64,000 nt of DNA from NCBI GenBank assembly GCA_001687465.1, contig LVLI01000109.1, positions 1-64,000 of the forward strand. The letters run 5' to 3'. The notes under the pieces were generated by a model. It saw only the letters and a program-made list of their open reading frames with translations. It was not told the DNA's origin and ran no database searches. The position numbers and the translations under genes were made by a program. Shown piece after piece: positions 44,046 through 64,000 of this stretch (positions within the stretch are counted from its first letter, which is position 1; each line of letters opens with the position of its first letter). Origin of the DNA: Halocafeteria seosinensis. Taxonomy: Eukaryota.

Positions 44046-44102
44046 TAGATTTTTTTTTATAAATTTATATATATATATATAATATATTTATAAAATAATC
44101 TA
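44046..44102. repeat. AT-rich imperfect palindrome at the host/element junction
   Basis: tagatt..ttttataaat-ttatatatatatatataa-..atttataaaa.aatcta folds with bulges on both arms. Confidence 0.75.
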
Positions 44103-44491
44103 ATAGGCTAGTTAGAAAAAATTAAAAACATTAGCATCAGGCACAATTGCTCCCTTCTTGGGGGAGGTAGCGATTTTTAAAGAAAGTTTATTTTAAACCG
44201 TTATTACCCTTCATTAATGAAACTAAAAGAAAATGAACACATTTTCACAAACGATACTAAATTGTTTTTGACGCCACTTTTTTCTAAAAAGGGCTTTGGG
44301 TTAGTTATTGAAAAGGATAGTCAGTTAATGAACCTAACCAACAACGAACTTCCGTATATTCTAGATTACAATTAACAAAAGCATCCAAAATACATTCATT
44401 TTCAATTCCACCTAAAGAATACAACCATTTAGCTGTTTCTAGATGACCATTTTGACAACACCAACGAAATTCGGGGAAAAGGTTAGGAGTT

Positions 44492-44827
44492 TTAATTTTT
44501 GTTAAACAGTGTTTTAAGTTTATTTTCCCAAGAAAGATTAGGATTATTCATAAAACTAGTAATATCTACCGCATTTTCTAACTGAAGGTATAGGTCTGGA
44601 TTTTGTTGTATAAGAAATGTTTCGTGTAAATAGTCCCAGACTTCATCCCAATTAATCTGCGATTTTTGAATGTTGGGGTAATCATCTACGTTAAATTCTT
44701 TTACGATATCGCTAAGGATACCCTCTTGTTCTGTAAGAGGGTAGTCCCAAAAGTCTAAAGGTATAATGTTGTTCTCGATAATGAGAGCGGTTTCTTTGGT
44801 ATCATAGTTAGTCCATTGGTTTTCCAT
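44492..44827 (-). CDS. Hypothetical viral protein
   Basis: 111-aa ORF with an upstream AAAAATGATTT motif shared with neighbouring genes. Confidence 0.6.
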   Translation of the reverse strand: MENQWTNYDTKETALIIENNIIPLDFWDYPLTEQEGILSDIVKEFNVDDYPNIQKSQINWDEVWDYLHETFLIQQNPDLYLQLENAVDITSFMNNPNLSWENKLKTLFNKN

Positions 44828-44893
44828 TGTTTATATATGTGGTTTTGTTTAAAAAGAAAAAAACAAAATCATTTTTTTTTTCTCATTTTTGAA

Positions 44894-46006
44894 CTATTTA
44901 GAGCAAAATAGAAAGATTTCGTTGGGAAAAAATCGCATTTCTTCTTTTAGATTTTCAAGCTTGTTAGCACAAAATACTTGGCTAAAATATTGCTTCAATT
45001 TTTCAATTCTTTTCAATAGATTGGCTTTACTCCTATCTCGTTCAATATGGTATGCTATAACCATTTTCTTTACCCCTGTAAAGTCAATGTTGTCTATTAG
45101 TTCTATTTCAGCACCTTCAATATCCATCTTAATACAATCGCCTTTTTCTATTAATTCCTGTAAATTTTGAACATCTGTTTCCCAGTATTCGGTTTTATTT
45201 TTGTTCGGATAAAAGGAATTCAACCACGGTTTAGTAGGGTGTTTATAAAACTTTCTTTTATTTTCTCTATCAATACCTAAAGGTTTATCAATAATAGTTG
45301 GAATTTTAACATTTCTTTGACTAAACCAATCTTTCATGATTTCTGTATTCCTAGGGTCTGGTTCGCAAAAGTATTTAACAGAACCTCCATTCATCAGGAC
45401 TTTAAAACTAAAACAACCAATATTTCCCCCACAATCAATCCATCGTTCATAAGGTTCAATTTTAAAACTGCGTCTTTGATAGGGACATTTTCTGATTACT
45501 TCCTTGACTATTGAATTGTATTCCGGATAGTCTGGATAGAAACTGAAACAATTATTATGATACAGCATAACCGAATACCTTGTTCCTTGATGGGGTTTAT
45601 TGTAGTGAGTAATATTAGTTCCATCAAAGACTTGAGGTTTATGATTAATGTCTATTTCTTCAAGTGTTCCATTAGGATGTTCTAAGACTAATTCACCACC
45701 CGTATAATTACCTAAACCTAGTATCAAAGTATTTCCTACATTTTTCCCATCTTTATGAGGCGGACATACAAAATCTTTGTTAATGGTGGCTGATGAAAAA
45801 GGAAAATTATACTCTTTTCCTATCTTTTTTATTGCTTCCCAGATTTCTGGATACTGATAGGTTAATTTCGTGTTTCCAATTTCACTAGTAAATAGTTTTT
45901 GAAAAATGCCTAGATGAAAGGATTGTATTTTGGTATTTGAAAGTTTTTTCCGCTGAGTTGTTGGAAATGGTTCTAGCTGATTAAGTAGGTCTTCTAAAAT
46001 ATCCAT
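44894..46006 (-). CDS. 2OG-Fe(II) oxygenase (TET/JBP-like) fused to FkbM-family methyltransferase
   Basis: HxD 'PPHKDGKN', 'LGNYTGGEL', distal His and Arg 'FDGTNITHYNKPHQGTRYSV'; then 'WIDCGGNIGCFS', 'CEPDPRN', 'IKMDIEGAE'. Likely start ATG 46006, because the upstream in-frame part is translated repeat DNA. Confidence 0.75.
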   Translation of the reverse strand: MDILEDLLNQLEPFPTTQRKKLSNTKIQSFHLGIFQKLFTSEIGNTKLTYQYPEIWEAIKKIGKEYNFPFSSATINKDFVCPPHKDGKNVGNTLILGLGNYTGGELVLEHPNGTLEEIDINHKPQVFDGTNITHYNKPHQGTRYSVMLYHNNCFSFYPDYPEYNSIVKEVIRKCPYQRRSFKIEPYERWIDCGGNIGCFSFKVLMNGGSVKYFCEPDPRNTEIMKDWFSQRNVKIPTIIDKPLGIDRENKRKFYKHPTKPWLNSFYPNKNKTEYWETDVQNLQELIEKGDCIKMDIEGAEIELIDNIDFTGVKKMVIAYHIERDRSKANLLKRIEKLKQYFSQVFCANKLENLKEEMRFFPNEIFLFCSK

Positions 46007-46100
46007 ATATATTTCTGAAATACTTTGTTCCTTTATGCTTTTAAAAAACATGGCAAAACGGTTTTTTGATGTTACTTTTTTTCTAAAAAAGAACAAAGCA

Positions 46101-46373
46101 TTAGATAAGACATTCAACAGGTTCTTTAGGTTGGATAGGTTTAACAGTAGTTTTCTTTTTAGCATCTTTTTTCTTTTCCTTATTATTATTGAATTGGAGT
46201 ATATAGTTGGGTTCTTCTAACCCTAGTTTTTCAAGTCTGGCTTGAATAGCTCCTGTAGTTCGTCCTAATTCTTTGGCTATTTCTTCTTTAGAAATTTTGT
46301 TATTATAACGGGTTTTAAGGGTTTCTTCTTGCTCTGTAGTCCATTTCTTGTATGTACCTGCTTTACCTGACAT
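46101..46373 (-). CDS. Small helix-turn-helix (Myb/GcrA-like) DNA-binding protein
   Basis: 'KWTTEQEETLK....EIAKELGRTTGAIQARLEKLGL'. Confidence 0.7.
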   Translation of the reverse strand: MSGKAGTYKKWTTEQEETLKTRYNNKISKEEIAKELGRTTGAIQARLEKLGLEEPNYILQFNNNKEKKKDAKKKTTVKPIQPKEPVECLI

Positions 46374-46425
46374 TATATATGTGTTTTTCTTTTTGAAACT
46401 AGAAAAAACAAAATCATTTTTCCCC

Positions 46426-47112
46426 TCATTTTTCAGGCTCATCGTCCAGTAGATTAGCGTTGTTTTGATACGATTTACATTTCTTGGACTTATGATGTCT
46501 GGTTAGATTACCCCTACTAACTTCTAGAGAGCAGAATTCACAAGTTATTTTTTGTCTCAAATACTCTTTATTCTTTTCATACCATTGTTTATTCCATTGT
46601 TTAGCCTGTTCAAGATATTTTTCACGATTATCTTTATTCCATTGTTTAGCCTGTTCAAGATATTTTTCACGATTATTTTTCTTCCACTGTTTAACCTGTT
46701 CAATACATTTCTCCCTGTTTTGTGAGTACCATTGTGCATGCCATTGTTTAGATTTATCTTTGTTATTTTGACGATATTCTTTTTTCTCTCTAGAAGGAAC
46801 ACGCTTATTTAACGTAGCTTGTAATTCTTCAAGATAATATCGTTCTCTTTTCGCTAACTGATGGCTAGTTTCACAGGGATACTGTTCAAGCAACACCATA
46901 TCCCAGTTTTCCCAGCCACCATTTTCTCTAATAAACTGATAAACGTAGTAATCATATTTTTTATCATTTGGAATGGTGCTACAGGATTTATGTTGCCTTT
47001 TTCTCTGTTTGAAATTTGTTGTGCTTCCCACATAACAATCATTTATTGAAGGGTCTAAACATGCTATCTTGTATATCAAACCATTATTGTAATTCACTTG
47101 TTTTTTTGGCAT
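46426..47112 (-). CDS. GIY-YIG endonuclease with C-terminal zinc finger
   Basis: 'GLIYKI..CYVGST..FKQRK..H', conserved Glu in 'RERYYL', 15-aa repeats 'REKYLEQAKQWNK', C-terminal 'CEFC..LTRHHKSKKC'. Confidence 0.85.
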   Translation of the reverse strand: MPKKQVNYNNGLIYKIACLDPSINDCYVGSTTNFKQRKRQHKSCSTIPNDKKYDYYVYQFIRENGGWENWDMVLLEQYPCETSHQLAKRERYYLEELQATLNKRVPSREKKEYRQNNKDKSKQWHAQWYSQNREKCIEQVKQWKKNNREKYLEQAKQWNKDNREKYLEQAKQWNKQWYEKNKEYLRQKITCEFCSLEVSRGNLTRHHKSKKCKSYQNNANLLDDEPEK

Positions 47113-47185
47113 TTAAACTTTATAATACTTTTTAAAAGATATAACTCTAAATCATTTTTTTTGTTGGCTATAGATATAATAAAAA

Positions 47186-47371
47186 ATGGTCAGATTAGGA
47201 GGAGCAAAAGGAAAGAAAAGAAAATCGAAGTGGAACACTGTGCTGTCGGATGCTCTTAAAGCACGTTACCAAAACATACCTAAGTTAGCTCAACAGTCCA
47301 AATGGACAAGAGAACGAGTATTTAGGAATGCTGTAGAAGCAACAAAGAAATGGTATAAACCTAAGAAATAA
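47186..47371 (+). CDS. Small basic protein with N-terminal GG motif (putative core protein)
   Basis: 'MVRLGG|AKGKKRKSKWN'; paralog at 61028-61231. Confidence 0.65.
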   Translation: MVRLGGAKGKKRKSKWNTVLSDALKARYQNIPKLAQQSKWTRERVFRNAVEATKKWYKPKK

Positions 47372-47428
47372 AGCTCTTTTTTAGAAAAAATACTTTTAAA
47401 AAAGTTCTGCTATGTTTTTTTAAAAGCA

Positions 47429-47635
47429 ATGAATAATCCTAAACTAAACGGGTTACAGAAGCGAATTTTGAAGCTAAAGAAATTACAACAGTGGTTAGTT
47501 TACCGTATGATATCTGAACGATATGGTGAGGACATACTACACGTGAGTGGAAGTATAACGACTTTCTTACCGGAGCATTTAGACGATGATTTCATAGATG
47601 AACTGGATGCGTATGTTAAGAGTTTCCAGCGTTAG
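47429..47635 (+). CDS. Hypothetical protein
   Basis: 68-aa ORF bracketed by repeat modules. Confidence 0.5.
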   Translation: MNNPKLNGLQKRILKLKKLQQWLVYRMISERYGEDILHVSGSITTFLPEHLDDDFIDELDAYVKSFQR

Positions 47636-47684
47636 CGTCTTCAAAAGAATGTGTTTTTTTGACGCCACTTTTTTTTAAAAAGGG

Positions 47685-47906
47685 CTATTTTTTAGTTTTA
47701 CTTTTGGCCTTTTTCTTTCGTTGTCTTAGTTCCTTTTTAAACTTTGCTTTTTCTTCGGGGCTCGCAAGGATAAGGTCATCAATTTCCTGTTCAGTTTGAA
47801 AATTCCTGTTAGGAGCTTTTTTCTTTGTCCTGATTTTTTTCAGAAAATTAACAGCATCCTTGATTTCTTTTATAGGATTTTTTGCTCCACCTGTTGTTCC
47901 AACCAT
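47685..47906 (-). CDS. Small basic protein with GG motif (putative core protein)
   Basis: 'MVGTTGG|AKNPIKEIKDAVNFLKK..DDLILA'; paralog at 59667-60071. Confidence 0.65.
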   Translation of the reverse strand: MVGTTGGAKNPIKEIKDAVNFLKKIRTKKKAPNRNFQTEQEIDDLILASPEEKAKFKKELRQRKKKAKSKTKK

Positions 47907-47955
47907 TATTCTTATATAGCTCTTTTAGAAAAAAGTTCTTTTTTAGAAGCACAAC

Positions 47956-48687
47956 TTAAGCATATTCACGGACTCTAAGAGCTCTATCTGTTTGGTTGGA
48001 TATGGATTGGGCAATTACATCACTGCTACCATCCTGATAAACGAATAAATCAGGGTTATCATCAGACCTGAGATGAATATTAGTTAAACTATCTCCTAAT
48101 GGCTGTGGAGCATATGACCAGTGAAGCAGATAGTCGGTAGGTGTAGCCCCAACATCAAAAGCTTTACTTTGGGCGTCAGCCTTGGTATTACCAGTTCCGT
48201 CAAATACATTATCAATGGCGTCACGAGCACCAGTACTCATATTGTAAATGTAGAGCGTTCCGGCATCATCTTCCAACATAACATAAAGTTTAGAACCAGT
48301 CCGCTGTATCATTTCAAAATGAGTGGCATCAACAGCACTGGCGACATCACCCGCGACAGCTTTGTATTTGGAATCACCGGAACTCCATTGGTAGTAATAT
48401 TGGTCGGATTCACCAAGGGATATCTCCCCGCTGGGAGCTGTGACATCTACAACCATAGCGGACAATAGCGCTTCAATATCGTTTTGTTTGAGGTTGTTAA
48501 GACTGGTAATATCGTTATCGTTACTGGCAATATCAGATTGATTTTGCGCAATATCGTTTGAGTTGGTAGTCACATCACTTTGAAGAGTGGAGATATTACT
48601 TGAGTTGGTAGCTATACTAGCTCCGTTAGCGAAAACTAGGTCTCTAAGATAGTTTGAAAAGCCTCTGAACACATCACCTGCTGACAT
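47956..48687 (-). CDS. Putative fibre protein (coiled-coil stalk plus head)
   Basis: Asn-rich heptads 'IATNSSNISTLQSDVTTNSNDIAQNQSDIASNDNDITSL' followed by a beta-rich domain. Confidence 0.5.
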   Translation of the reverse strand: MSAGDVFRGFSNYLRDLVFANGASIATNSSNISTLQSDVTTNSNDIAQNQSDIASNDNDITSLNNLKQNDIEALLSAMVVDVTAPSGEISLGESDQYYYQWSSGDSKYKAVAGDVASAVDATHFEMIQRTGSKLYVMLEDDAGTLYIYNMSTGARDAIDNVFDGTGNTKADAQSKAFDVGATPTDYLLHWSYAPQPLGDSLTNIHLRSDDNPDLFVYQDGSSDVIAQSISNQTDRALRVREYA

Positions 48688-48764
48688 CTTTTTCTTATTA
48701 TATACCTATAGCTAAGAAAAAAAATGCTTTTGAATAATGTTTTGCCGTGCTTTTTCTAAAAGCA

Positions 48765-49034
48765 CTAGGGAATAGTTGAACCATCATCAAATTCTATAGT
48801 ATAGGTTTCCTTAAGATAACTGATATAATTTTCTAATTCAGTGACACGGTTCTTAAGGTTGTTAATTTCTTGGGTTAAGCTTTGAACATCGTCATCGAGA
48901 ATATCCTTAAGTTTTATTTTACCGTTAGACAATTCTAAACCGCTTCCGAGGCTCACTTTTTTGGTGATTTTGTCGGAATGTAGATACCGTTCAATAATAG
49001 TATTATCGTTATCAAGAATGAGTGCGACAGCCAT
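48765..49034 (-). CDS. Short fibre-like protein
   Basis: N-terminus 'MAVALILD...IIERYL' shared with the 52394 spike; shaft-like 'LGSGLELSNGKIKL'; coiled coil. Confidence 0.5.
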   Translation of the reverse strand: MAVALILDNDNTIIERYLHSDKITKKVSLGSGLELSNGKIKLKDILDDDVQSLTQEINNLKNRVTELENYISYLKETYTIEFDDGSTIP

Positions 49035-49165
49035 ACTGCTTTATAATAGATGATTTTAAAAAAATGCTTTTAAAAAAGCATGGCAAAACTGTGCTTTCCG
49101 CGTTAGCGTCTTCAAAAGAACTCTTTTCACATTAGCATCTTCAAAAGGCGGGCTGTTTTGCCGTG

Positions 49166-49720
49166 CTACTTTTGTTTTTGGATATCGCGGGTAAGCCAAG
49201 TTACAACTTGGTCATAGGTTTTTAAACCTAATTCCTTTTTGGCTTTATCCAAGGCTCTTTTATACTGTCCGATATCCAGATTTCTATTGCGGTATCTGAC
49301 TAAGGCGTGACGACCACAAGTATTGGAATCATCGGCCTGTAACTTGAACGGATTGTAGTAGATTGGCTTTTTTTCCAGACCTTGGGCTATTTTTTGGAGA
49401 ATTAGCGGGTTTTCTTGTCCTAACTCATCGTTCTTAGCTTCGGAAAGCCAAGCCAATGGTTTATCAGGGTATCCGCCGTAAGAATCAAAATATTCAACGT
49501 AATTGCCGTGGTCAATAAGCAAGACCCAGTGACCAAAATTATGCTTTTGGAGATATAAAACCATCAAAGCATGAGAAGGATTATCTAATAACTTACAGAT
49601 ATTATTCTTATTCAATTCATCATAGGTTTTTATAGGGACATGTAACCGTGTAAATTCTTGGAGCTGAGATTCGCTCAAGGCTATCTTTTCCAATTTCTTA
49701 ATTAGTTTCTTATTCACCAT
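49166..49720 (-). CDS. Adenain/Ulp1-like (clan CE) cysteine protease, virion maturation
   Basis: His 'GHWVLL', Asp 'EYFDSYG', Gln/Cys 'LQADDSNTCGRH'. Confidence 0.85.
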   Translation of the reverse strand: MVNKKLIKKLEKIALSESQLQEFTRLHVPIKTYDELNKNNICKLLDNPSHALMVLYLQKHNFGHWVLLIDHGNYVEYFDSYGGYPDKPLAWLSEAKNDELGQENPLILQKIAQGLEKKPIYYNPFKLQADDSNTCGRHALVRYRNRNLDIGQYKRALDKAKKELGLKTYDQVVTWLTRDIQKQK

Positions 49721-49900
49721 ATAGCTCTTTTTTAGAAAAAAGTATCTTCCGCGTTAGCGTCTTCAAAAGAACTTTAATAATTCTTTTGGAGTTCAATTCA
49801 AGTGTTTTTGATGCCACTTTTTCCTAAAAAGGGCTGTTTTGCCGTGCTTTTTTAAAAGCGAAGTTCAGGTGTTTTTGACGCCACTTTTTTTTAAAAAGGG

Positions 49901-50167
49901 CTAGGCACTAGCGATAGCACTAGCAATACCCTTGATTGATTTCTTAACTCCTGTTTTAAAAGCGTTTTTAGCCGTCTTTTTAGCACCTTCCCGAACTCCT
50001 TCTGGTAGATTATCGAAGATAGCTCTAGCGTTTTTGATTCCGAAGCCTCCTCGTTTAGTGGTTGGCTTATAAGTCTGAGATGCTAATTTAGAAACTTGAC
50101 TGAAAGATTTCTGGGGGTTTTGTTTGGCGACTTTACTGACGTGTTGATTCCAAGCTGTTTTTACCAT
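49901..50167 (-). CDS. Small basic protein with internal GG motif
   Basis: 'WNQHVSKVAKQNP..SKLASQTYK..KRGG|FG'. Confidence 0.6.
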   Translation of the reverse strand: MVKTAWNQHVSKVAKQNPQKSFSQVSKLASQTYKPTTKRGGFGIKNARAIFDNLPEGVREGAKKTAKNAFKTGVKKSIKGIASAIASA

Positions 50168-50218
50168 TCTGTCTATATAGCTCTTTTTTAGAAAAAAAGT
50201 AGCATCAAAAAATCTTTC

Positions 50219-50342
50219 CGCGTTAGCGTCTTCAAAAGAATGTTCTTTTTTAGAAAAAAAGTAACGTCAAAAAACTCTTTCGCGTTAGCGTCTTCAAAAG
50301 AATGTTCTTTTTTAGAAAAAAAGTAACGTCAAAAAACTCTTT
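50219..50342. repeat. Exact tandem duplication of a 62-bp R3+R1 module
   Basis: cgcgttagcgtcttcaaaagaatgttcttttttagaaaaaaagtaacgtcaaaaaactcttt x2. Confidence 0.95.
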
Positions 50343-50361
50343 CTAAAAGCACAAAAAGGGC

Positions 50362-50949
50362 TTAAAAAAAGTTTCGACAGATAGGACAAGACAATTTCTC
50401 CAGATGGGGGTAACAATCTAGACAGACAAAGTGATTACACCGTTTCCATAAATAAACGAGAGCCGGTTTCTCTTTGATACAAATGGGGCAGTCTTCAAAA
50501 TAAGGGTTTTTCAGAGTACTAAACGGGACACACTGGATATTGGGACGAAAATAACGACGAACGGCACTATATTGGGCTTTTTCAAGTGCTATCTGACGAT
50601 ATGACTCGCCGGAATAACAGTTTAAGTCCCAATCTGCACCGTGTTGTTCAAAGAACTTGACCATATATAGAGGAGCGGAAGTAACGACTGCCCATAAAGG
50701 AGAAAAAATCCACGGTTCTTCTTCTTGATGACATTCATTCGGATGAATATAATTAATAATTAGATATCTGACGAATTCATACTTGCGACAATGGAGGGCA
50801 TGAACGACATCAACAGGTTCAACCGGCATATGTTTTAATTCACAAGCGTATCTAAGAACCGCTAAATCGTTACATCTTTCAATGATACAATCAATCCTCC
50901 CCATTATGAAACAGGGAGTATGAGCCAAACATCCAATCACACGATTCAT
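50362..50949 (-). CDS. Ankyrin-like plus RING finger protein
   Basis: 'SPLWAVV..MVKFFEQHGAD' ankyrin-like; C3HC4 'CPIC..CNHFVCLDC..CPICR'; ATG 50949 directly after the R1 motif. Confidence 0.75.
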   Translation of the reverse strand: MNRVIGCLAHTPCFIMGRIDCIIERCNDLAVLRYACELKHMPVEPVDVVHALHCRKYEFVRYLIINYIHPNECHQEEEPWIFSPLWAVVTSAPLYMVKFFEQHGADWDLNCYSGESYRQIALEKAQYSAVRRYFRPNIQCVPFSTLKNPYFEDCPICIKEKPALVYLWKRCNHFVCLDCYPHLEKLSCPICRNFF

Positions 50950-51045
50950 ATAGCTCTTTTTTAGAAAAAAAGTAGCGTCAAAAAACTCTTCCACTCTAAT
51001 AATTCTTTTGGAGTTCAAGTGTTTTGCTGTGCTTTTTTAAAAGCA

Positions 51046-51195
51046 CTAGGGCTTGATACTGATTTTGGAACAGGTCATTTGGGAGTCTTCGTAGAGACAG
51101 CTACTTCGGCATCGTAATTTCTTAAAAAGTTTGTAGAAAAATGGTATTGCTCCCATCCCTCCGGTAATTATTAGGACTATAGTTATTATTTCCAT
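51046..51195 (-). CDS. 49-aa single-pass membrane protein (not in ORF track)
   Basis: MEIITIVLIITGGMGAIPFFYKLFKKLRCRSSC...; paralog at 59487-59639. Confidence 0.65.
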   Translation of the reverse strand: MEIITIVLIITGGMGAIPFFYKLFKKLRCRSSCLYEDSQMTCSKISIKP

Positions 51196-51231
51196 ACCCT
51201 ATACTTAAGGGTAAATAAATAAAATCCCCCT

Positions 51232-55574: not shown

Positions 55575-55829
55575 ATGTATCTTAAAGATTCCAGAGTTAA
55601 ACCAAGTCTATCATTGCTTAATACACCTGAAGACCAGTTTTTTAGTATGATAAAGGATTGGAAAAAAGAACTGATGGAATGGAGGGAAAAAAATAAAGAT
55701 TTCTCAGCAGGTGATACTGTGTCATGTGACCACCAGACCATGTATATAATGGTTAATGTTCTAGGTATAGTTCAATGTACCCCCGATATGTCTATTGATA
55801 ATTTTGAAAAGTATAAGGTATGCTTTTAA
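55575..55829 (+). CDS. Hypothetical protein
   Basis: ATG 55575 follows R1; stop lies inside an R2-type palindrome. Confidence 0.5.
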   Translation: MYLKDSRVKPSLSLLNTPEDQFFSMIKDWKKELMEWREKNKDFSAGDTVSCDHQTMYIMVNVLGIVQCTPDMSIDNFEKYKVCF

Positions 55830-55862
55830 AAGCATTTTTTTCTAAAAAAGAGCTATATAAGA

Positions 55863-56455: not shown

Positions 56456-56613
56456 AAAAGCACGGCAAAACACTTGAACTTCAAAAGAATTATTAGAGTT
56501 CTTTCTAAGACGCTAACGCGGAAAGAGTTTTGAAGTTTTTTAGATGCTTTATGCTTTTAAAAAAGCATGGCAAAACTTTTTTGATGCTACTTTTTTTTCC
56601 AAAAAAGAGCTAT

Positions 56614-57048
56614 ATGAAACGGTCTAGATTTTTTACCAGAGAGGAAAAAAGAATTATTGATGTATTGACATTTACGGACGATTGGACATTGTTAGGGTCT
56701 CCAGCTGACCCGAACTTTCGATATACATCTGATTTTGATGTAATGGGAAATGTGCCCTTTTCAGGAAAGAGCAAGAATATGGGACAGATGTTAGCTGATA
56801 TGTTGAAAAAGAAAGTAGAAACCATTCATCGTATGAAAAACGTCTATCTAGGCGATGTAAAAGCTGGGACACACAAAGGTGAAAAACTGAGGTGGAATAG
56901 AACAACTATTCGTCAAGGTTATCAGGTGCTCAGCCCTTTTAAAAAGAGTGGCGTCAAAAACTTGGTTTATTTAAGTGATGCCATTAACCAAATCGAAGCA
57001 GAGAATATCTGGCGGAAAAAGTGGATAAAGGGATACATCCTAATATAA
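56614..57048 (+). CDS. Pol-beta-superfamily nucleotidyltransferase-like protein, probably truncated by element B
   Basis: 'LLGSPADPNFRYTSDFDV' (hGS..DxD); the ORF runs into the 57012 hairpin and stops. Confidence 0.55.
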   Translation: MKRSRFFTREEKRIIDVLTFTDDWTLLGSPADPNFRYTSDFDVMGNVPFSGKSKNMGQMLADMLKKKVETIHRMKNVYLGDVKAGTHKGEKLRWNRTTIRQGYQVLSPFKKSGVKNLVYLSDAINQIEAENIWRKKWIKGYILI

Positions 57049-57217
57049 TTGGGGATTATCCCCAAAATTTTATAGCAGGGGGTAAAACCCTAAATCCACA
57101 GGGAACCTGCTACCTGAAGGTAGCAGTCCTATACATCTAGGGTTTAATCCTCTATTATAAAACCAAGGGGCTTAACCTCAATCATACAGGGATATACCCT
57201 ATATCCACTTTTTCCGC
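57012..57217. repeat. ~206-bp imperfect inverted repeat (long hairpin)
   Basis: Ends gcggaaaaagtggata / tatccactttttccgc; arms remain complementary up to the central ctgctacct-ga-aggtagcag; followed by ~12-bp tandem units (aaaattacact/aaattaagttt) to ~57272. Confidence 0.9.
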
Positions 57218-57383
57218 AAAATTACACTTAAAATTACACTCAAAATTAAGTTTTAAATTAAGTTTTAATAAGTAGCAGGCACCGTGGTCTTTAGGTTGTA
57301 GTGGGACTCTACAATGAGCGAGGCTTTATTGAGCGAGTCCTACATTATATATTTATATTTTCTCTAAATAGAAATTTTTACAA

Positions 57384-57644
57384 TTAATCAGTTCTAAGAT
57401 TGTTGTTGGAAAGGTAATTGGAAAGATATAATAGTCGGAAAAATACGTGTGATGTTGAGCCGAAAAGAGGTTCATCAGGGTTCAACTTCCCTTGTTTCCA
57501 ATTTTCATATAGTTCTTTTATATCATCAGCATCATCAGTTTCATACATTTCTGTGAAATGGGATTGTTCTTCGTCCCATAAGTAATTTATTACATAATTA
57601 ACGCAGTCAATGAAATTTTTGTGGGTTTCCTGTGTTTCCGTCAT
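57384..57644 (-). CDS. Hypothetical acidic protein
   Basis: 86-aa ORF with AAAATTGA about 37 nt upstream. Confidence 0.6.
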   Translation of the reverse strand: MTETQETHKNFIDCVNYVINYLWDEEQSHFTEMYETDDADDIKELYENWKQGKLNPDEPLFGSTSHVFFRLLYLSNYLSNNNLRTD

Positions 57645-57680
57645 ATTGGTAATTTAGTTTAAAGGTTACAATTTTAAAAA

Positions 57681-58076
57681 TCAATTTTTTGTTTCTATAT
57701 GTTTAAGGGTAATAACGAGTGATGGTGTATTTTGTCGGACATAATCCATAGGTAAACTATCCACTTTATTAAGGAAAGGATCCCTTTCACAGTTAGCACC
57801 TAAGGAATTAACGTAATTTTCAGAATTTAAGTAATCAACATGAAGAAGGGAAGGGGGATTATCACAAAAATTCAGGGTGATTTTCTCTATGTTATCATCA
57901 GGAATATTAAAGTCATTTGTTAAGGTTCTATTGGGGAGAATACCTTCATAGTCAATACTATGTAAATAGTTTAAATCTTTGGAACAGGATAATTTTTTTA
58001 CACCACAGGAGGTTAGATATAAAGTTGCGTTAATAAGTTGCCTTTGTTGTTGTTCAGTTATAGTGTTTTCTATCAT
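57681..58076 (-). CDS. Hypothetical protein
   Basis: 131-aa ORF with AAAATTGA about 37 nt upstream. Confidence 0.6.
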   Translation of the reverse strand: MIENTITEQQQRQLINATLYLTSCGVKKLSCSKDLNYLHSIDYEGILPNRTLTNDFNIPDDNIEKITLNFCDNPPSLLHVDYLNSENYVNSLGANCERDPFLNKVDSLPMDYVRQNTPSLVITLKHIETKN

Positions 58077-58188
58077 TTTCTTGGTAAATTTTATAATTTT
58101 AAAGTTTAAAAATCAATTTTTTGTTACCGGTAAAATTAAAGTAAAAAATTGAAATTTTATTTTATAAACCTATAAACAATATACCACA

Positions 58189-58479
58189 ATGGGAAAAGTA
58201 AAAGAACAAGTTATGGAACAAGAACAGAATGAAAATTATCAATGGTTAAAAGAACAATGGGGTTATGCGTATGAAAAAGCAAGGAAAATATTTGAACAAG
58301 GTAAAGATAAAGATCAGTTTTATTTGGATGACCGGTTTTATACAGAAGAAGAGAAAAAGAACTTTTTTGAGGATATAGAACTATTTGATTATCCAGTCTG
58401 GGAATATCTCGCAGATAGAACCATATATGGGTATTTAAGTGTTGACAAATACATTTTTTGCGATAGTGATAGTGAGTAA
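58189..58479 (+). CDS. Hypothetical protein, tandem paralog 1
   Basis: 'WG..Y..AR.I.E.GK.K..F..D..YT.EE...FFE..E.FDYPVWEYLA' shared with the next gene. Confidence 0.7.
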   Translation: MGKVKEQVMEQEQNENYQWLKEQWGYAYEKARKIFEQGKDKDQFYLDDRFYTEEEKKNFFEDIELFDYPVWEYLADRTIYGYLSVDKYIFCDSDSE

Positions 58480-58553
58480 ATAAAATTGGTAATAATATAA
58501 TGAAACAAAAAATTGATTTTTATATTTTTGAAGATAATAAGTAATATAAAACA

Positions 58554-58910
58554 ATGGGACGAATGAAAGACCGCTTGAGAGAACGAGAAGGTTGCCAATT
58601 TATGGTTAACACTTGGGGTGAGACTTATTTTGAAGCTAGAAGAATTTATGAAGAAGGAAAACCAAAAGAAGAATTTGAAATAGACACTAATTATACACAC
58701 GATGAAAGAGAGTTGTTTTTTGAGAATCTTGAAATATTTGATTATCCAGTTTGGGAATATTTAGCAGAAATAAATAAAGAAGGATTTCTAAGTGTAGATA
58801 GTTATATATATAACTATGATATTACGTCATTATATCCAACAGCAATGTTTGAGACTTTAAACGAACACACATTTAGTTATACAGACACTGACTCAGCACA
58901 TATCTTTTAA
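58554..58910 (+). CDS. Hypothetical protein, tandem paralog 2, with a tail made of PolB motif A and C fragments
   Basis: Ends '..YNYDITSLYPTAMFETLNEHTFSYTDTDSAHIF'. Confidence 0.7.
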   Translation: MGRMKDRLREREGCQFMVNTWGETYFEARRIYEEGKPKEEFEIDTNYTHDERELFFENLEIFDYPVWEYLAEINKEGFLSVDSYIYNYDITSLYPTAMFETLNEHTFSYTDTDSAHIF

Positions 58911-59458
58911 TCAATATCTCTAGTTAACCAACTGACTGTCTGGTCAAACGTTTTCAAACCAAACTTATCTTTTTTCTGAGTGAGCCAGTTTATAAAACCT
59001 CTTAGGGTTAAATGTTTCTTACGCCAACGTAAGACCACATATCTCCCACACGTCTCGCTGTCATTTTTGAACAACTGAAGCTGTTGGTCATTCCAATATA
59101 TTGGTTTGGGGTTTTTAGATTTAGCCACACTTTGTAGAATTAGTGGACTTTGACCTAATCGTTGGTTCTTTTTCTTTGTGTTTCCGCTTAAGGGTTCATC
59201 GGGATAATCCCCATAACTATCAAAATAAGATATATATTTACCGTGATCTAATAGAATACACCAATGTCCGAATGATTTTTCAAATAAGTAAAGGATAATA
59301 ACCGCTTTGGATGGGTTATTTAAAATATCATAGATTGTTTTGTGTTTAGGGATTTCATTTAAAGATATAATAGGAATTTTTAACTTAGTAGCAGTTTGTA
59401 ATTTTCGGGATGATAATGCTTGATGTTTTAGTTCATTTATTAATTTGCGATTGACCAT
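58907..59458 (-). CDS. Second adenain-like cysteine protease
   Basis: 'GHWCILL', 'YFDSYG', 'LQLFKNDSETCGRY'; collinear with 49166-49720. Confidence 0.85.
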   Translation of the reverse strand: MVNRKLINELKHQALSSRKLQTATKLKIPIISLNEIPKHKTIYDILNNPSKAVIILYLFEKSFGHWCILLDHGKYISYFDSYGDYPDEPLSGNTKKKNQRLGQSPLILQSVAKSKNPKPIYWNDQQLQLFKNDSETCGRYVVLRWRKKHLTLRGFINWLTQKKDKFGLKTFDQTVSWLTRDID

Positions 59459-59486
59459 TTAAATCTCTTATATTTAGAGATTTAAA

Positions 59487-59639
59487 TTATTTTTCTGTTT
59501 CAACACTAGACTTACATTCAGAATTTTTACCACAACGACTTTGACAAGAGTATCTTTTACGAATGAGCTTATAGATAATGGGTGAAATTCCAGCACTACC
59601 CCCAATTACTGTTGTTAAGATAATGGTCAAAAGTTCCAT
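59487..59639 (-). CDS. 50-aa single-pass membrane protein (not in ORF track)
   Basis: MELLTIILTTVIGGSAGISPIIYKLIRKRYSCQSRC...; paralog of 51046-51195. Confidence 0.65.
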   Translation of the reverse strand: MELLTIILTTVIGGSAGISPIIYKLIRKRYSCQSRCGKNSECKSSVETEK

Positions 59640-59666
59640 TCTATAATTAACCTTAGATTTTAATTT

Positions 59667-60071
59667 TCATTTAAGCTTTTGAATAACTTTTTTGTGTTGA
59701 AGTGGAGGACCATATGTAGATTTTTTAGTACCTAGTCTTCCACATGCTCCACCTTTTTTCTTACCTTTCTTACCCTTTTTACTTTGTTTTCGTTCTTTTT
59801 CTTGCTGTTTACGAATTTGTTTCTTTTCTTCTTCGGTGGCTAACATTAAATCGTCAGGATCACCTTGGAAAATTTTTGTTCCGTGTTTAGGTTTAGCACC
59901 TTTCTTGTTCAACTTTTTGAAAAAGTTAATAGTATCTTTAATATTTTTTACAGCACCTCCTCCTTTTTTACCACTTCCTTCTGGAGGCATAGCTTGACCA
60001 GATTCAGCAGATGCTCCTTGATCAGATTGAGCTTTTTCTTTAATTTTTTCAATTACTGTTGGTTTAGTCAT
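59667..60071 (-). CDS. Basic protein with two GG motifs (putative core protein precursor)
   Basis: 'KKGGG|AVKNIKDTINFFKK..DDLMLA..KKGG|AC'. Confidence 0.65.
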   Translation of the reverse strand: MTKPTVIEKIKEKAQSDQGASAESGQAMPPEGSGKKGGGAVKNIKDTINFFKKLNKKGAKPKHGTKIFQGDPDDLMLATEEEKKQIRKQQEKERKQSKKGKKGKKKGGACGRLGTKKSTYGPPLQHKKVIQKLK

Positions 60072-60178
60072 GTTTGTTTTAAGATCTAGTCCTAATTCAT
60101 TTTTACCAAAATTTCTAAGGATGTCTAGCGAGATTGTCTTTCCTATATCTTTATTAATTTCATCTACTGTTTGATTGA

Positions 60179-60319
60179 GATAAGAGCTTAAATCGTCGGG
60201 TCTGTATGTCGGAGTCTTTAGACGATATCCAATATTGGAAAAATTGTGGGCATTTCGTTTGCCAAGATTGTTTCAAACAGTTAAGTAATAGTCTTTGTCC
60301 GTCGTGTAGAGGAGTGTAA
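60179..60319 (+). pseudogene. Degenerate RING-finger fragment
   Basis: Reads 'RRVCMSESLDDIQYWKNCGHFVCQDCFKQLSNSLCPSCRGV*' with an in-frame stop just upstream and the first Cys lost; resembles the RING at 50362. Confidence 0.6.
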
Positions 60320-60362
60320 TTAAAAATACAATTAAAGTTTAATATTCTTGAACTTTAATTAA

Positions 60363-60434
60363 GATCAACGGAGGGAATTGAACCCTCAACTGCTTTGCCA
60401 CAAAAAGCCGATTTTCCATTAATCTACGTTGATC
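60363..60434 (-). tRNA. tRNA-His(GUG) with encoded G-1 and C73
   Basis: G-ATCAACG/CGTTGAT-C acceptor stem, GATT/AATC D stem, GCTTT-TTGTGGC-AAAGC anticodon arm, GAGGG-TTCAATT-CCCTC T arm. Confidence 0.85.
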
Positions 60435-60459
60435 TATTAACAATAATTAATAGATCACT

Positions 60460-60825
60460 TTAATCTTCTTCCAGATCATCATGTTTTTCTTTTTTTGCTT
60501 TTTCTCTTCTTGCTTTTTCTTTGATATTGGATAGCCTTTTGCTTATTACATGCTTTAACCAGCCTTCGTCTAATTTCGGTTCTAACCAAGCCAAATAATT
60601 TTTATCTATTTCCCTAATTTTTTCACCTTTGTATTTCCCAAAAGGCATAGGTTGAAATCCGTCATCTAACCATTTCTGAGCGTGAACATAAAAAGTATTA
60701 TTTAACCAACTTTCTTCCACGTTGTTTAATAACGTGTATAAATAACTAGGGTGTTCAATTGCTACGTCTTGTAAGAGAAAACCTTTATATTTCCCGAACG
60801 AGAAAGTTATTTTTCTAAAATCCAT
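60460..60825 (-). CDS. Protein with two 'FGKYKG' repeats (DUF3820/ExoX C-terminal-like)
   Basis: 'FSFGKYKG..PSYLYTL' and 'MPFGKYKG..NYLAWL'. Confidence 0.65.
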   Translation of the reverse strand: MDFRKITFSFGKYKGFLLQDVAIEHPSYLYTLLNNVEESWLNNTFYVHAQKWLDDGFQPMPFGKYKGEKIREIDKNYLAWLEPKLDEGWLKHVISKRLSNIKEKARREKAKKEKHDDLEED

Positions 60826-61027
60826 TTTCTTATAATAATATATGTTTATTCCTCTCTAAATAGAAATTTTAATAATTGCTCAATGACGCCTCGGTCATTG
60901 TAGCCACGGACTACACCCCAAATACATCGCAAAGCTACATGCTATAGAATTATTTTAATTCGCTTGTATCTTTCACGTGGTTAAGTTGCTTGTAGGTGCT
61001 ATTACAGGGTTCGCGGCAACGCTGTAA

Positions 61028-61231
61028 TTATAGACCTTTCGTAAAGAAAAAATCCCCAACACCACCTCCTTTTTTACTGTATTGACTTTTTGCTTGTTTT
61101 ACACCCCGTTTAAAGGCATTTCTCCTTTCTTGTTTATTAGCTTTACCCTTAATCTGGTTGAACTGCTTTTTTACAGCTTGACCAACTAGTTGGTTCCACT
61201 TAGATTTTTTTCTACCTGCTATTCGTACCAT
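61028..61231 (-). CDS. Small basic protein, paralog of 47186-47371
   Basis: 'MVRIAGRKKSKWN..FKRGVKQAKSQYSKKGGG'. Confidence 0.65.
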   Translation of the reverse strand: MVRIAGRKKSKWNQLVGQAVKKQFNQIKGKANKQERRNAFKRGVKQAKSQYSKKGGGVGDFFFTKGL

Positions 61232-61260
61232 TTTCCTATATATTATACGAAGAAAAATAT

Positions 61261-61791
61261 TTAAACTGTTTGATAACTTTGACATTTTGTTGACTTCTGG
61301 TGTCGCATTTTATTGGTTCTGGAAACTAAAGAACCACAATGTTCACATTCAACTTTTTCTGATTCACGGTTTTTAATATGTTCTTTATTCTTTTCTTTGT
61401 ATTGTTTATGATAATTTTTAATGTGTTCTTTATATTTTTCCCGATAATTTTCATTATATTCTTCCTTGCTTTGAGTAGGAAGTTGTTTATTACATTTTGG
61501 ATTATAGTGTTCTATTAATTCCCGTTCTCGTCGTTCAAGTTCTAATTTGCTATTACAGGGATAGTATTCAATTAAGACCATCGTGAAATTTTCCCAGCCT
61601 CCATTTTGTCTAATTTCTTGATAAAGGGGGTAAGAATAACCTTTTACGTTCGTGTTATTAAAACATTCTTTATGATTCTTCTTTCGTTGCTTAAAGTTAG
61701 TAGTGGAACCAATGTAAACAACTTCGGATGAATCTATCGGTACAATCTTGTAAATCAAACCATTGGAATAGTCTATGTTTTGTTTTGGCAT
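61261..61791 (-). CDS. Second GIY-YIG endonuclease
   Basis: 'GLIYKI..VYIGSTTNFKQRK', 'NGGWENFTMVLIE.YPC', 'CEHCG..RHQKSTKC'. Confidence 0.85.
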   Translation of the reverse strand: MPKQNIDYSNGLIYKIVPIDSSEVVYIGSTTNFKQRKKNHKECFNNTNVKGYSYPLYQEIRQNGGWENFTMVLIEYYPCNSKLELERRERELIEHYNPKCNKQLPTQSKEEYNENYREKYKEHIKNYHKQYKEKNKEHIKNRESEKVECEHCGSLVSRTNKMRHQKSTKCQSYQTV

Positions 61792-61828
61792 TTAGTATTA
61801 TTTGGTATTAATTAGTATTAAATAAGTT

Positions 61829-64000
61829 CTAAATCATTTTGTAAATTAAATTTATATTACCGTTAGGGTACCACCGATTATCAATCAAACCACCATCTGT
61901 GGTAGACCAATTAGGAGACCACGTCTTTTCAAACTTAGTTTGAATGATATCAAAATGCTCCACTCCTTTAGTCTTTTGTTCTTTTGAAGGTTTTAAATTA
62001 ACCTTTTTTAAATGTGGGTTTGAATCTGTAATCACTGTTTCCTGTTCGTGTTCATAGATATCTCCAAATTGTTTAAGCAAATCTTTGGGTATACCCTTAC
62101 ATTTTAAATCATCGCAAATATTCCCGAACTTGTCTATATAAATATAGAAATAATTCTTAGGACTGTAATTTCCTTCACACAGAATCTTACCACCGTCATC
62201 AATGTCATTACTCAAACATCCAAGACCTGTATCAAACCAGTATTTACCATTGGTGGGATTAATCTTGTTTTCTAGTCTTGGTAAAAGTGATGAATGGATA
62301 TGTGCCGAGTCTGTATCTGTATAACTAAATGTGTGTTCGGTTAGAGTTGGATCTAAAGCCTCAAACAGATTTAACATAATTCTCCTACTGTAAGAGAGAA
62401 GAAACATTCCTACGTGAATAGGTTTATTATTAATAGTATCATCATCGTCTTCTTTGGTTCCTGTTACAGCTATCCCGTGGTTCATAACAATTATATCATT
62501 AATGTATTTATGGTCTCTCCAAAATCCAATAAAGGAATTGTAGTCATTACAAATTTCTGTTTCAGAATATCTTGGCTTTTGTAAAGTTTTACCAAATAAA
62601 CTATTTAAAAAGAGCTTCGCACAAGCTCGGATACTTTTATTATAGTTAGAATCTCCATTTTCTTTATATACATCTTGTTCGGCTTTAACACGGAAAAACA
62701 TATCTACATAATCCTTAAAAATATAATCCCCTGTTTTCCATTCATAACCTTCGTGAATTCTAGTTATTTCGTATCCATGTTTTATAGCATGTTCTAAATC
62801 AATATGTGTGTACCATTCTTGAGATATATTTTTGATATTCCATTGTACACCTATTCTTTGGTTCAAATGATTATATTTAGGACTAGGAACCGGTGAAATA
62901 ACTAAATCACGATTATGATTAACCATATCCACTTTTAAAAGATAGAATTTATCTAAAGTCTGTCTAGCATTTAACTTTTTCTTTACATCTTCAAATTCTT
63001 CCATTTTTTCAGGTTCTCCCATAGGATACTGATAATAGTACATAGCTGTCGGATATAATGACGTAATATCACCATTAAAAATATAATCTTCTGTATTCTT
63101 ATATAATTGACGAGCTTGATGCTGAAAATAAATACCTTCCATTCCTTTATTCCTGTTTAGTTTCTGTTCATCATAAATTAATTTAGCACCCCTAAAAGAT
63201 AAACTCATATAATGCTTTTTCATAGGATAGGTTCTGCCTCCATAAGTAGCTTTCCGACAATCTTCTAACAATTTCTTTTCTTTAGGAATATGAACCAATT
63301 TTTCAGTCTCTCTTCCTTCAATAGTAGGTTTTTTATTTTGTGATTTATCAAATACCCTTCGGTTAATATCATCAGCAAACTGTGGTAAAGTACAAAAATC
63401 TAAAGGTTCATACTTTTCAAGATAATCCAATTCTTCTTTCCCGAAAATATCCGAAATAGCTTGTCTATATTTCATTACTAATTCAGCTAATCCCATAACA
63501 TCTTTCTCTAGATAAGGTCCCCATTCAGGTTCATATTTTTCTACATCATCCCATGTTTTGATTTTAGAATGCTCAAAATCCCCTTTACTAACCTCACAGT
63601 TAAAATCTTTCAAGGCTTTCTTTAAACTCCCTCCTACATGATTGTTAATATCCCAGAAAACTAAATTATTTTCTTCAATCTTCATACTTAAAATTCTCCC
63701 ATTATTCAGAATAATATCTTTCATTTTTACACCCTTTTCTTGTAGTTTAGATAAAATAAAATGAAAATCAAAACCTGAACCATTAAAAGCCACCGCATAT
63801 TGAGGTTTGGTGTAAGTTTTTTCTTTCATCACTCCTTTTTCCTTCCCTTTATAGGTTCGTGTTATTTTAGGAATATTAATTAAATAATCCACAAAAGCAT
63901 CCAAACAATTCTCTCCTTTAAATCTTTGTCTAGTCTCTGGATTCCTACCTTGTACAATATCACCCGCATAGACACGATGAATTAACTGATTTTCTGGGAA
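61829..64000 (-). CDS. Protein-primed family B DNA polymerase (pPolB), 5'-partial
   Basis: ExoII 'FNGSGFDFHFI', ExoIII 'YLEKDV', 'YGGRT', motif A 'DITSLYP', motif B 'KLFLNSLFGK', motif C 'YTDTDS', 'PKNY', 'KCKGI'; the frame stays open to the window edge. Confidence 0.92.
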   Translation of the reverse strand, partial: FPENQLIHRVYAGDIVQGRNPETRQRFKGENCLDAFVDYLINIPKITRTYKGKEKGVMKEKTYTKPQYAVAFNGSGFDFHFILSKLQEKGVKMKDIILNNGRILSMKIEENNLVFWDINNHVGGSLKKALKDFNCEVSKGDFEHSKIKTWDDVEKYEPEWGPYLEKDVMGLAELVMKYRQAISDIFGKEELDYLEKYEPLDFCTLPQFADDINRRVFDKSQNKKPTIEGRETEKLVHIPKEKKLLEDCRKATYGGRTYPMKKHYMSLSFRGAKLIYDEQKLNRNKGMEGIYFQHQARQLYKNTEDYIFNGDITSLYPTAMYYYQYPMGEPEKMEEFEDVKKKLNARQTLDKFYLLKVDMVNHNRDLVISPVPSPKYNHLNQRIGVQWNIKNISQEWYTHIDLEHAIKHGYEITRIHEGYEWKTGDYIFKDYVDMFFRVKAEQDVYKENGDSNYNKSIRACAKLFLNSLFGKTLQKPRYSETEICNDYNSFIGFWRDHKYINDIIVMNHGIAVTGTKEDDDDTINNKPIHVGMFLLSYSRRIMLNLFEALDPTLTEHTFSYTDTDSAHIHSSLLPRLENKINPTNGKYWFDTGLGCLSNDIDDGGKILCEGNYSPKNYFYIYIDKFGNICDDLKCKGIPKDLLKQFGDIYEHEQETVITDSNPHLKKVNLKPSKEQKTKGVEHFDIIQTKFEKTWSPNWSTTDGGLIDNRWYPNGNINLIYKMI

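Follow-up and report, generated by a model that had tools for sequence, protein, structure and literature searches.

Protists may carry a heritable defence against giant viruses in the form of endogenous virophages, and whether such virophages can still be reactivated depends on their piling-up, mutual breakage and decay. The genome of Halocafeteria seosinensis (~39 Mb, 47% GC) is described as carrying virophages of ~35% GC, with nine virophages and five Polinton-like viruses (PLVs) embedded in other viral elements in addition to tandem arrangements (Haro et al., bioRxiv 2026, 10.64898/2026.07.28.741278). The accessible part of that preprint also reports fragments without core genes, palindromes at virophage termini next to target-site duplications, promoters resembling the late promoter of Cafeteria roenbergensis virus (CroV), and RING-finger and GIY nuclease genes that are common among the elements; a protease is found in the virophages but not in the PLVs. 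In Cafeteria burkhardae, the endogenous mavirus-like elements (EMALEs) include truncated and recombinant forms, and other mobile elements insert into them, according to the consulted sections of their description (Hackl et al., 2021, PMC8547959). Here we describe a locus in a 64,000-nt stretch of the H. seosinensis contig LVLI01000109.1 (hereafter the window). The block studied, positions 44,046–64,000, contains two related elements, A and B, which very probably are joined at a real gene break; our preferred reading, held with moderate confidence, is that B inserted into a nucleotidyltransferase (NTase) gene of A.

Over the first 44 kb the window consists of eukaryotic host DNA with a GC content of 46–49%, in which long open frames encode DENN, glycine dehydrogenase, TPR, NB-ARC/WD40, protein kinase, SHQ1 and rhodanese domains. 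At ~44,000 the GC content drops to 30–40% and remains there up to the window end at 64,000, and the low-GC block is filled with tightly packed, intron-less open reading frames (ORFs) on both strands. Because of this GC shift and the host-domain ORFs in the flank, the block is foreign DNA within a eukaryotic chromosome. The GC contrast (host 46–48%, elements 30–40%) is like that given for the endogenous virophages of this species in the accessible text of Haro et al. (2026). The block is laid out as follows.

44036..44092, no strand: (TA)n microsatellite at the host/element edge, the left limit of the low-GC block, where short-read contigs end
44046..56999, no strand: element A, a virophage-type fragment of ~13 kb with a GC content of 30–43% (600-base windows) and its own intergenic motifs
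56614..56999, plus strand: N-terminal 128 codons of an Mg662-type NTase of A, cut at 56,999/57,000
57000..57217, no strand: X, a high-copy unit with a 206-nt imperfect palindrome (57,012–57,217) and a 21-nt outer inverted repeat
57217..57268, no strand: two short arrays of 12-nt tandem repeats of B, just inside X
57218..64000, no strand: element B, virophage-type, with a GC content of ~27.5–34% (600-base windows), running past the window end

The break lies within the NTase gene. This ORF has an A-type promoter on its 5' side, and past the cut 16 unrelated codons follow before the frame stops at 57,048. A full HMMER search returned 70 relatives, 52 of them 250–400 amino acids long, which are matched by the N-terminal 100–130 residues. 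In the best relative (P0055, 301 amino acids), residues 1–128 are aligned at 64% identity, and the match ends at window residue 130, corresponding to base 57,003. Residues G28, D40 and D42 are invariant in the family, S29 is nearly so, and all four are kept in the window copy; the invariant residues K130, D132 and K179 lie past the break and are missing from it. The window NTase is truncated and is therefore a gene fragment. The initial annotation had placed the cut in this ORF at 57,012. The match to relatives does end at a cut, but the break is at 56,999/57,000, and 57,012 is the start of the 21-nt inverted repeat. Its assignment of the ORF as a nucleotidyltransferase agrees with a model of P0055 (45 sequences, pLDDT 93.8) that adopts the fold of the Megavirus chilensis NTase Mg662 (TM 0.66–0.69, E 1e-10 to 5e-9). 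Comparison with Mg662 (PDB 4XUL, 4AMS, 4AMQ) shows the same fold and invariant G-S and D-x-D residues at an identity of only 14–16%; members of the Mg662 family have ~300 residues, whereas the window copy keeps the first 128. An Atlas search with the NTase fragment gave leads only (score 0.91–0.92), with giant-virus NTP_transf_2 clusters at rank 13 and below, and a scan with NTase alignment A4 retrieved a single distant relative from metagenomes (L098, 26%), beside which no virophage hallmark was seen.

Sequencing reads provide a view of the same site. A public run, X1, contains 66% of the sampled words of 52,500–62,000, and its contigs total 37.8 Mb; no RNA run with this stretch was among the runs listed. 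An A-side X1 contig covering 56,772–56,999 at a depth of 171 stops at a fork, and a contig branch past 56,999 reads DFKIDLVGW in A's frame, which are the nine residues after the break point in P0055. Because this branch spells the expected residues in frame, an uninterrupted copy or allele of the NTase gene exists. A 21-letter piece of the X1 sequence past 56,999 is not matched anywhere else in the window.

On the other side of the cut stands X, which is non-coding, ~206–218 nt long, has inverted ends and occurs in many copies; its palindrome had escaped the initial annotation. The predicted fold of the palindrome as single-stranded DNA has −48.7 kcal/mol (z −7.7), a stability that none of 200 shuffles reached. 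The X1 depth is 1056–2106 over 57,001–57,108 and 410–458 up to 57,189, against ~130 over the host flank. Other left-hand sequences meet X at 56,997, 56,999 and 57,032 in at least three X1 contigs, and at least two further contigs match B from 57,218 on and differ before it. X looks like an element terminus, since it is high-copy in X1 and present in several other contexts. At 56,999/57,000, then, a sharp cut in A abuts a candidate terminus of B.

That the sequences on either side of this point come from related elements is apparent from the genes they have in common, which are listed here in pairs.

46426..47112, minus strand: GIY-YIG endonuclease of A (Pfam)
61261..61791, minus strand: GIY-YIG endonuclease of B (Pfam), with AAAATGATTT 40 nt 5' of the ATG
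49166..49720, minus strand: CE-clan (Ulp1/adenain-like) cysteine protease of A, virophage type (blastp, IMG/VR scan, fold)
58907..59458, minus strand: CE-clan cysteine protease of B, paralogue of A's (blastp, quick tree)
47186..47371, plus strand: basic protein 1 of A, 61 amino acids (blastp pairing)
61028..61285, minus strand: basic protein 1 of B (blastp pairing)
47685..47906, minus strand: basic protein 2 of A, 73 amino acids (blastp pairing)
59667..60071, minus strand: basic protein 2 of B, 134 amino acids (blastp pairing)
51046..51195, minus strand: mini membrane protein of A, 49 amino acids (read by eye)
59487..59639, minus strand: mini membrane protein of B, 50 amino acids (read by eye)
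50362..50949, minus strand: RING-finger protein of A (zf-RING_5, E 2.6e-5, just below the cut-off)
60179..60319, plus strand: RING-finger remnant of B, 46 codons from stop to stop, with the first Cys pair missing

The pairs were scored by all-against-all blastp of 32 ORFs. Identity is 48.6% between the proteases (E 3e-60), 40% between the GIY-YIG endonucleases (E 9e-43), 38% between the copies of basic protein 2 (E 3e-8) and 31.7% between those of basic protein 1 (E 1e-5); the mini membrane proteins are alike on reading by eye (unscored). The RING remnant of B matches the C-terminus of A's RING protein at 42% over 38 amino acids (E 5e-11) and lies on the opposite strand. The order of the paired genes is scrambled between A and B and not collinear. 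An earlier count of six gene types on each side of 57,012 thus has to be lowered to five diverged full pairs, with RING represented in B only by the 46-codon remnant; the accompanying statement that the pairs are clearly diverged agrees with the scored identities of 31.7–48.6%. These comparisons support the view that the block is integrated viral DNA made up of two related but diverged units.

The intergenic sequences change at the junction as well. All 11 window matches to TTTGAYGCYAC fall within 44,267–56,958 (0.18 expected), all seven exact matches to AAAAGAGCTAT within 47,916–56,613, and all 11 matches to TTTCTAAAAAAGAGC with at most two mismatches within 46,080–56,610 (0.35 expected); AT-rich palindromes of the GCTTTTAAAAAAGC type are found at gene ends in A. 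The repeated intergenic modules of A end at 57,000, and the change of repeat content reported earlier for this point is upheld, with A's motif sets confined to the left of ~57,000. In the AAAAGAGCTAT module a T-run and an A-run enclose a TCTA core, and the module abuts the ATG of the genes for basic protein 2, the protease, ORF 49901, the RING protein, ORF 51232, the methyltransferase and the NTase, such that a TCTA-core motif lies immediately 5' of at least seven A genes. This late-type motif of A has its TCTA core inside TTTCTAAAAAAGAGCTAT, directly before the ATG. Further upstream, AAAATGATTT is found 37–39 nt 5' of the ATG in three genes at the left end of A (ORF 44492, the helix-turn-helix gene when read from its second ATG, and the GIY-YIG gene), and AAAATTGA 37–38 nt 5' of the ATG in four consecutive small genes of B; counting A and B together, one or the other precedes eight genes at 37–40 nt. 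A switch of early-promoter variant at the junction had also been proposed, and this is true of the four B genes with AAAATTGA but not of B's GIY-YIG gene, which bears the A-type AAAATGATTT.

Both kinds of motif have counterparts among giant viruses and their parasites. In the available text on the Polinton-like virophage PgVV-14T, a virophage of Phaeocystis globosa virus, AAAATTGA is given as the mimivirid early promoter core and lies upstream of part of the genes (10.1101/2022.07.28.501842). The present elements resemble PgVV-14T in this respect; PgVV-14T is described there as a Polinton-like virus, whereas the elements here have a virophage-type protease. TCTA flanked by AT-rich sequence is the CroV late and mavirus promoter motif in the sections consulted of Hackl et al. 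(2021). By analogy, the upstream motifs of A and B appear to copy mimivirid early (AAAATTGA) and late (TCTA-type) promoters.

The type of the elements was judged from the protease. An alignment-based IMG/VR scan yielded 554 pattern matches, 530 of which encode protease relatives, and Pfam was run on 47 large ORFs from 27 of the 80 IMG/VR loci retained. In 22 of these 27 loci both Sputnik capsid domains occur in one ORF, mostly in the order protease, V18/19 penton, capsid. In L004 and L005 (2/2) the protease likewise stands beside Sputnik-type penton and capsid genes, so that such genes adjoin protease relatives in 24 of 29 IMG/VR loci altogether. Because of this association, the sequences point to A and B as virophage-type elements rather than Polintons or Polinton-like viruses; of the double label Polinton-like/virophage in the initial annotation, only the second part is retained. 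A quick protease tree of 66 rows, a kind of check that had been proposed with that label, clusters A, its 92% relative P0048 and B (SH-aLRT 91) inside the IMG/VR virophage proteases. Residues H64, D86, Q128 and C135 of the A protease are invariant in a 58-sequence alignment, and the model built from that alignment (pLDDT 92.4) has as its top structural matches only CE-clan proteins (SseL, Den1, African swine fever virus pS273R, SENPs, Ulp1 and poxvirus I7L; TM 0.3–0.5). The protease is thus predicted to have the CE-clan fold. In the PDB, protease profiles reached nothing but CE-clan deubiquitinases below the threshold (E 0.07–2), and single-protein IMG/VR scans with the protease or with B's protein-primed family B DNA polymerase (pPolB) found no close relative.

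The pPolB gene is present in B only and absent from A in the Pfam scan of 31 window ORFs. It has 47 relatives, all told, of which the best are metagenome proteins at 45–46% identity; three of the top four have 1161–1228 amino acids, and many more distant ones are on 16–18 kb contigs. With mavirus and the EMALEs (compared by description, PMC8547959), the locus has in common low-GC integrated virophages, pPolB, a cysteine protease and a TCTA late promoter with AT-rich flanks. It is unlike them in that capsid, penton, ATPase and integrase genes are missing from the window, the protease is not beside capsid genes, and an early motif of the AAAATTGA type is present too. Polintons/Mavericks are alike in that a chromosomal insert combines pPolB and a protease of the CE clan (adenain/Ulp1-like); unlike in those elements, neither an rve integrase nor a Polinton-type capsid gene is found in the window, and the protease relatives travel with Sputnik-type capsid genes.

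A number of observations weigh against the insertion of B into A. The Pfam scan of the window ORFs contained no capsid, penton, ATPase or integrase/recombinase family, rve integrases included. A tblastn search of the window with all large ORFs of five loci recovered pPolB and the protease only. Profile hidden Markov models (HMMs), one built from 21 capsid proteins and one from 12 penton proteins, were compared with all six frames of the window and reached best E values of 0.59 and 0.49, respectively. The ATPase ORFs of L001, L004 and L005 had no tblastn match in 44,046–64,000, with no dedicated ATPase profile built, and gave two weak matches (E 0.006 and 0.034) in host DNA at ~6,200 and ~31,000. 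Element A by itself has no capsid, ATPase, polymerase or integrase gene detectable by Pfam, tblastn or the capsid and penton profiles. With capsid, penton, ATPase and integrase genes all missing from the window, A and B cannot be regarded as complete, and the protease of A and that of B are not followed by penton and capsid genes, unlike those of most relatives. Capsid and integrase genes may lie past 64,000, and the fibre-like and basic proteins and the maturation protease of A can be understood only if a capsid is encoded in another place.

The ends of the elements bear on the question in the same direction. The left end of A shows neither a terminal repeat nor similarity to X, its depth in X1 is not raised, and A is for that reason not demonstrably a bounded element; no inverted repeat was found between its left and right ends. 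None of the X1 contigs listed bridges 44,046 or 56,999/57,000, the left edge being a microsatellite. Nesting is unproven, because the far end of B, the target-site duplication and the resumption of A lie past 64,000. X might be a small mobile element in its own right and not the end of B, and terminal palindromes occur mostly on elements without pPolB in the accessible part of Haro et al. (2026), whereas B has one. Among the promoter motifs, TCTA-like late motifs stand before only two to three genes of B, and the count of AAAATTGA over the whole window is not above chance (11 against 6.65 expected, reached in 8 of 100 shuffles). The telling point for AAAATTGA is only its fixed spacing before four neighbouring genes.

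Alternatively, A and B may be adjacent and not nested. A would then have been truncated at 56,999 at an earlier time, by deletion or recombination, and B would have integrated or recombined beside it, in a tandem array or at a hotspot. Tandem virophages and fragments without most core genes are known in a comparable genome (accessible text of Haro et al., 2026), A's left end has no recognisable terminus and A may be a fragment anyway, and B has the scars of recombination, namely inverted pPolB fragments at 58802–58913 and the inverted RING remnant. The break itself, however, is base-sharp, intragenic and abuts a terminal-type palindrome, exactly as a single integration would give, and run X1 contains an uninterrupted copy of the same NTase gene. 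On these grounds we regard simple adjacency as somewhat unlikely.

A different origin of the break would be X itself, as a free-standing miniature fold-back transposon that broke A, or as a site at which recombination did so, with 57,218 being the end of B or of a B fragment. The small size of X (~206–218 nt), its inverted ends and lack of coding capacity would suit such an element, as would the depth of its left arm (~10–16x that of the host), its presence in at least three other left contexts, and the existence of at least two contigs with B-like sequence from 57,218 but without X. Yet no target-site duplication flanks X, be it at 57,000/57,217 or at 57,012/57,217, no contig joining A at 56,999 to B at 57,218 is among the X1 contigs listed, and terminal palindromes are described at virophage ends in the part of Haro et al. 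(2026) that could be consulted. IMG/VR is uninformative either way: an exact 16-mer of X has 12 matches there, none extending beyond 26 nt, which fits chance. This explanation appears quite unlikely to us. In a related scenario, which we consider unlikely, X would be a high-copy 'virophage MITE' (miniature inverted-repeat transposable element) derived from two virophage termini, moved in trans by virophage integrases, breaking virophage genes and seeding recombination; it could then also serve as a hairpin primer, giving a pPolB-bearing element a second mode of replication.

The block might also be one larger, chimeric virophage genome in which genes are duplicated, or the assembly might have joined two loci at ~57,000; we hold both to be highly improbable. 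In their favour, no junction-bridging contig is among those listed for X1, the assembly of multi-copy elements is difficult (a point made for Cafeteria in the sections consulted of PMC8547959) and the GIY-YIG genes of A and B have the same promoter variant AAAATGATTT. Against them, the joint falls inside a gene, the two sides of it differ in motif sets and GC, two proteases and two GIY-YIG genes at 40–49% identity would be unusual in one small genome, and the X1 depth of 460 in the bin 56,974–57,000 exceeds the 171 of the one A-side contig listed, so that further X1 contigs overlap the A side of the joint.

The favoured insertion of B into A's NTase gene suggests a model for the history and possible function of the locus. 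Palindrome X would be the terminus of B and the multi-copy end of the B family, and an integrase, presumably encoded outside the window, would have placed B into the NTase gene, leaving the rest of A beyond B and beyond the window end. The genes would be expressed only once the cell is infected by a mimivirid giant virus. The transcription machinery of that virus could then read the early-type motifs, AAAATTGA in B and AAAATGATTT in A, and also the late-type motif of A with its TCTA core in TTTCTAAAAAAGAGCTAT. After excision, the linear DNA would be replicated by pPolB; the small basic core proteins would be substrates of the CE-clan protease, and the fibre-like proteins would decorate a capsid encoded by genes elsewhere.

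Between them, the portions consulted of two studies (PMC8547959; 10.64898/2026.07.28.741278) already describe endogenous virophages in nested and tandem arrangements, fragments that lack core genes, palindromes at termini and promoters like those of giant viruses; the locus is of this known kind and may already be catalogued. It adds detail to the published picture rather than opening a new one. As a worked example it is clean, in that a virophage NTase with its nearest solved fold in a mimivirid is cut to the base by what appears to be the palindromic end of a second virophage, A and B use single-base variants of the mimivirid early promoter, and neither has capsid genes within 20 kb. The fresher details are the palindromic terminus on a pPolB-bearing element, the single-base variants of the early promoter, the Mg662-type NTase and a tRNA-His gene in B. 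Two of these, the occurrence of a terminal palindrome together with pPolB and the tRNA-His gene, may be worth a whole-genome look.

The remaining genes of A are the following.

44492..44827, minus strand: 111-amino acid ORF, no function assigned, with AAAATGATTT 39 nt 5' of the ATG
44894..46165, minus strand: FkbM-type methyltransferase (PF05050, E 2e-8) fused to an N-terminal part resembling 2-oxoglutarate/Fe(II) oxygenases (PF12851, E 0.002, below the cut-off)
46101..46442, minus strand: GcrA-like helix-turn-helix protein (Pfam), start likely at 46373, with AAAATGATTT upstream
47956..48687, minus strand: fibre-like protein with N-terminal coiled-coil repeats and weak likeness to trimeric adhesins (E 0.01)
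48765..49034, minus strand: 89-amino acid coiled-coil protein (ORF and blastp)
49901..50167, minus strand: 88-amino acid basic protein (ORF)
51232..52335, minus strand: 367-amino acid lineage-specific protein with a Pro-rich basic tail (ORF)
52394..53845, plus strand: right-handed beta-helix (tailspike-like) fibre protein (Pfam)
53940..54911, minus strand: lipase-like protein with a GHSLG motif (Lipase_3, E 0.049, below the cut-off)
55863..56455, plus strand: C5 DNA methyltransferase in two frames, 55863–56075 and 56036–56455 (PF00145, weak, E 0.0018, below the cut-off)

Element A thus encodes three fibre-like proteins along with small basic proteins and a maturation protease. The first 18 residues of the 89-amino acid coiled-coil protein and the 483-amino acid beta-helix protein are identical at 10 positions (56%) and contain a MAVAxILD motif; this common N-terminus may be a virion-attachment tail for alternative fibres. 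The lipase label is based on the GHSLG motif, the sub-threshold Lipase_3 match and the presence of relatives in virophage loci (14–15 of 85). Relatives of the FkbM-type fusion protein were found in two IMG/VR loci, and the two homologues found for ORF 51232–52335 (85% and 68% identity) are both partial. Sequence searches of the PDB gave nothing usable for the fibre-like protein, the protease, ORF 51232 or the lipase-like protein. Two tandem repeats were observed in A: an in-frame 45-nt repeat (2.7 copies, 92%) at 46588–46710 in the GIY-YIG gene, and, between ORF 49901 and the RING gene, a 62-nt repeat (2.6 copies, 96%) at 50182–50343 in which promoter and hairpin modules are stacked.

In the C5 methyltransferase gene, an X1 contig (depth 121) has 40 extra bases at 56,067/56,068, in which no stop is seen by eye, and by frame arithmetic these bases would join both frames. 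The window copy therefore has either a 40-bp deletion or an assembly gap. The gene also marks a difference from Haro et al. (2026), whose accessible text gives no PF00145 methyltransferase for the genome, whereas A has this frameshifted C5-methyltransferase-like gene.

The remaining genes and features of B are the following.

57384..58910, both strands: four small ORFs (57384–57644, minus; 57681–58076, minus; 58189–58479, plus; 58554–58910, plus), with AAAATTGA 37–38 nt 5' of each ATG
58802..58913, plus strand: two inverted pPolB fragments, the DNA 85–87% like 63040–63086 and 62288–62347
60363..60433, minus strand: tRNA-His gene, anticodon GTG (Rfam tRNA model, 57.5 bits; gathering score 29)
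60460..60825, minus strand: 121-amino acid protein with two ExoX-like C-terminal motifs (Pfam)
61829..64000, minus strand: pPolB, C-terminal 723 codons (PF03175, E 4e-45), the 5' part past the window

ORFs 58189–58479 and 58554–58910 are paralogues (47% identity, E 1e-25), and the latter is chimeric: its first 90 residues are like 58189–58479 (47%) and its last ~35 come from the inverted pPolB fragments. These stray fragments correspond to the motif A and motif C regions of the polymerase, and they sit where penton and capsid genes adjoin the protease in most relatives. Both units appear to be decayed, A in its frameshifted C5 methyltransferase gene and B in its RING remnant and stray pPolB fragments.

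The tRNA-His gene of B lies directly 3' of the stop of ORF 60460–60825, and ARAGORN starts it one base earlier, at a G. This extra base would be a gene-encoded G-1 opposite C73. A G-1 encoded in this way is typical of bacterial and organellar tRNA-His and not of the eukaryotic nuclear type. Of 60 IMG/VR loci scanned, one (L014) has a tRNA, for Gln.

The IMG/VR pPolB sequences closest to that of B (33–34% identity) are on L001–L003, which are ~15–17 kb long and have a Pox_A32-type ATPase. These contigs also have a 618-amino acid ORF with no Pfam or PDB match, and no relatives of the A and B protease were found on them. They may represent a Polinton-like virus group with a polymerase common to this virophage lineage.

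Two further runs from the same study as X1, X2 and X3, hold next to none of the words of 43001–63000. They do include contigs 90–95% like parts of A (protease, RING, beta-helix) and like a 50-nt piece of B, and the X2 depths on those contigs are 148–730, against 3.9 on its sole host-flank piece; related elements are therefore there at high depth without this host locus. Within the host flank, 13 kb upstream of the viral block, an ORF of 1954 codons (24753–30617, plus strand) combines NB-ARC and WD40 domains in a STAND/NLR-like architecture.

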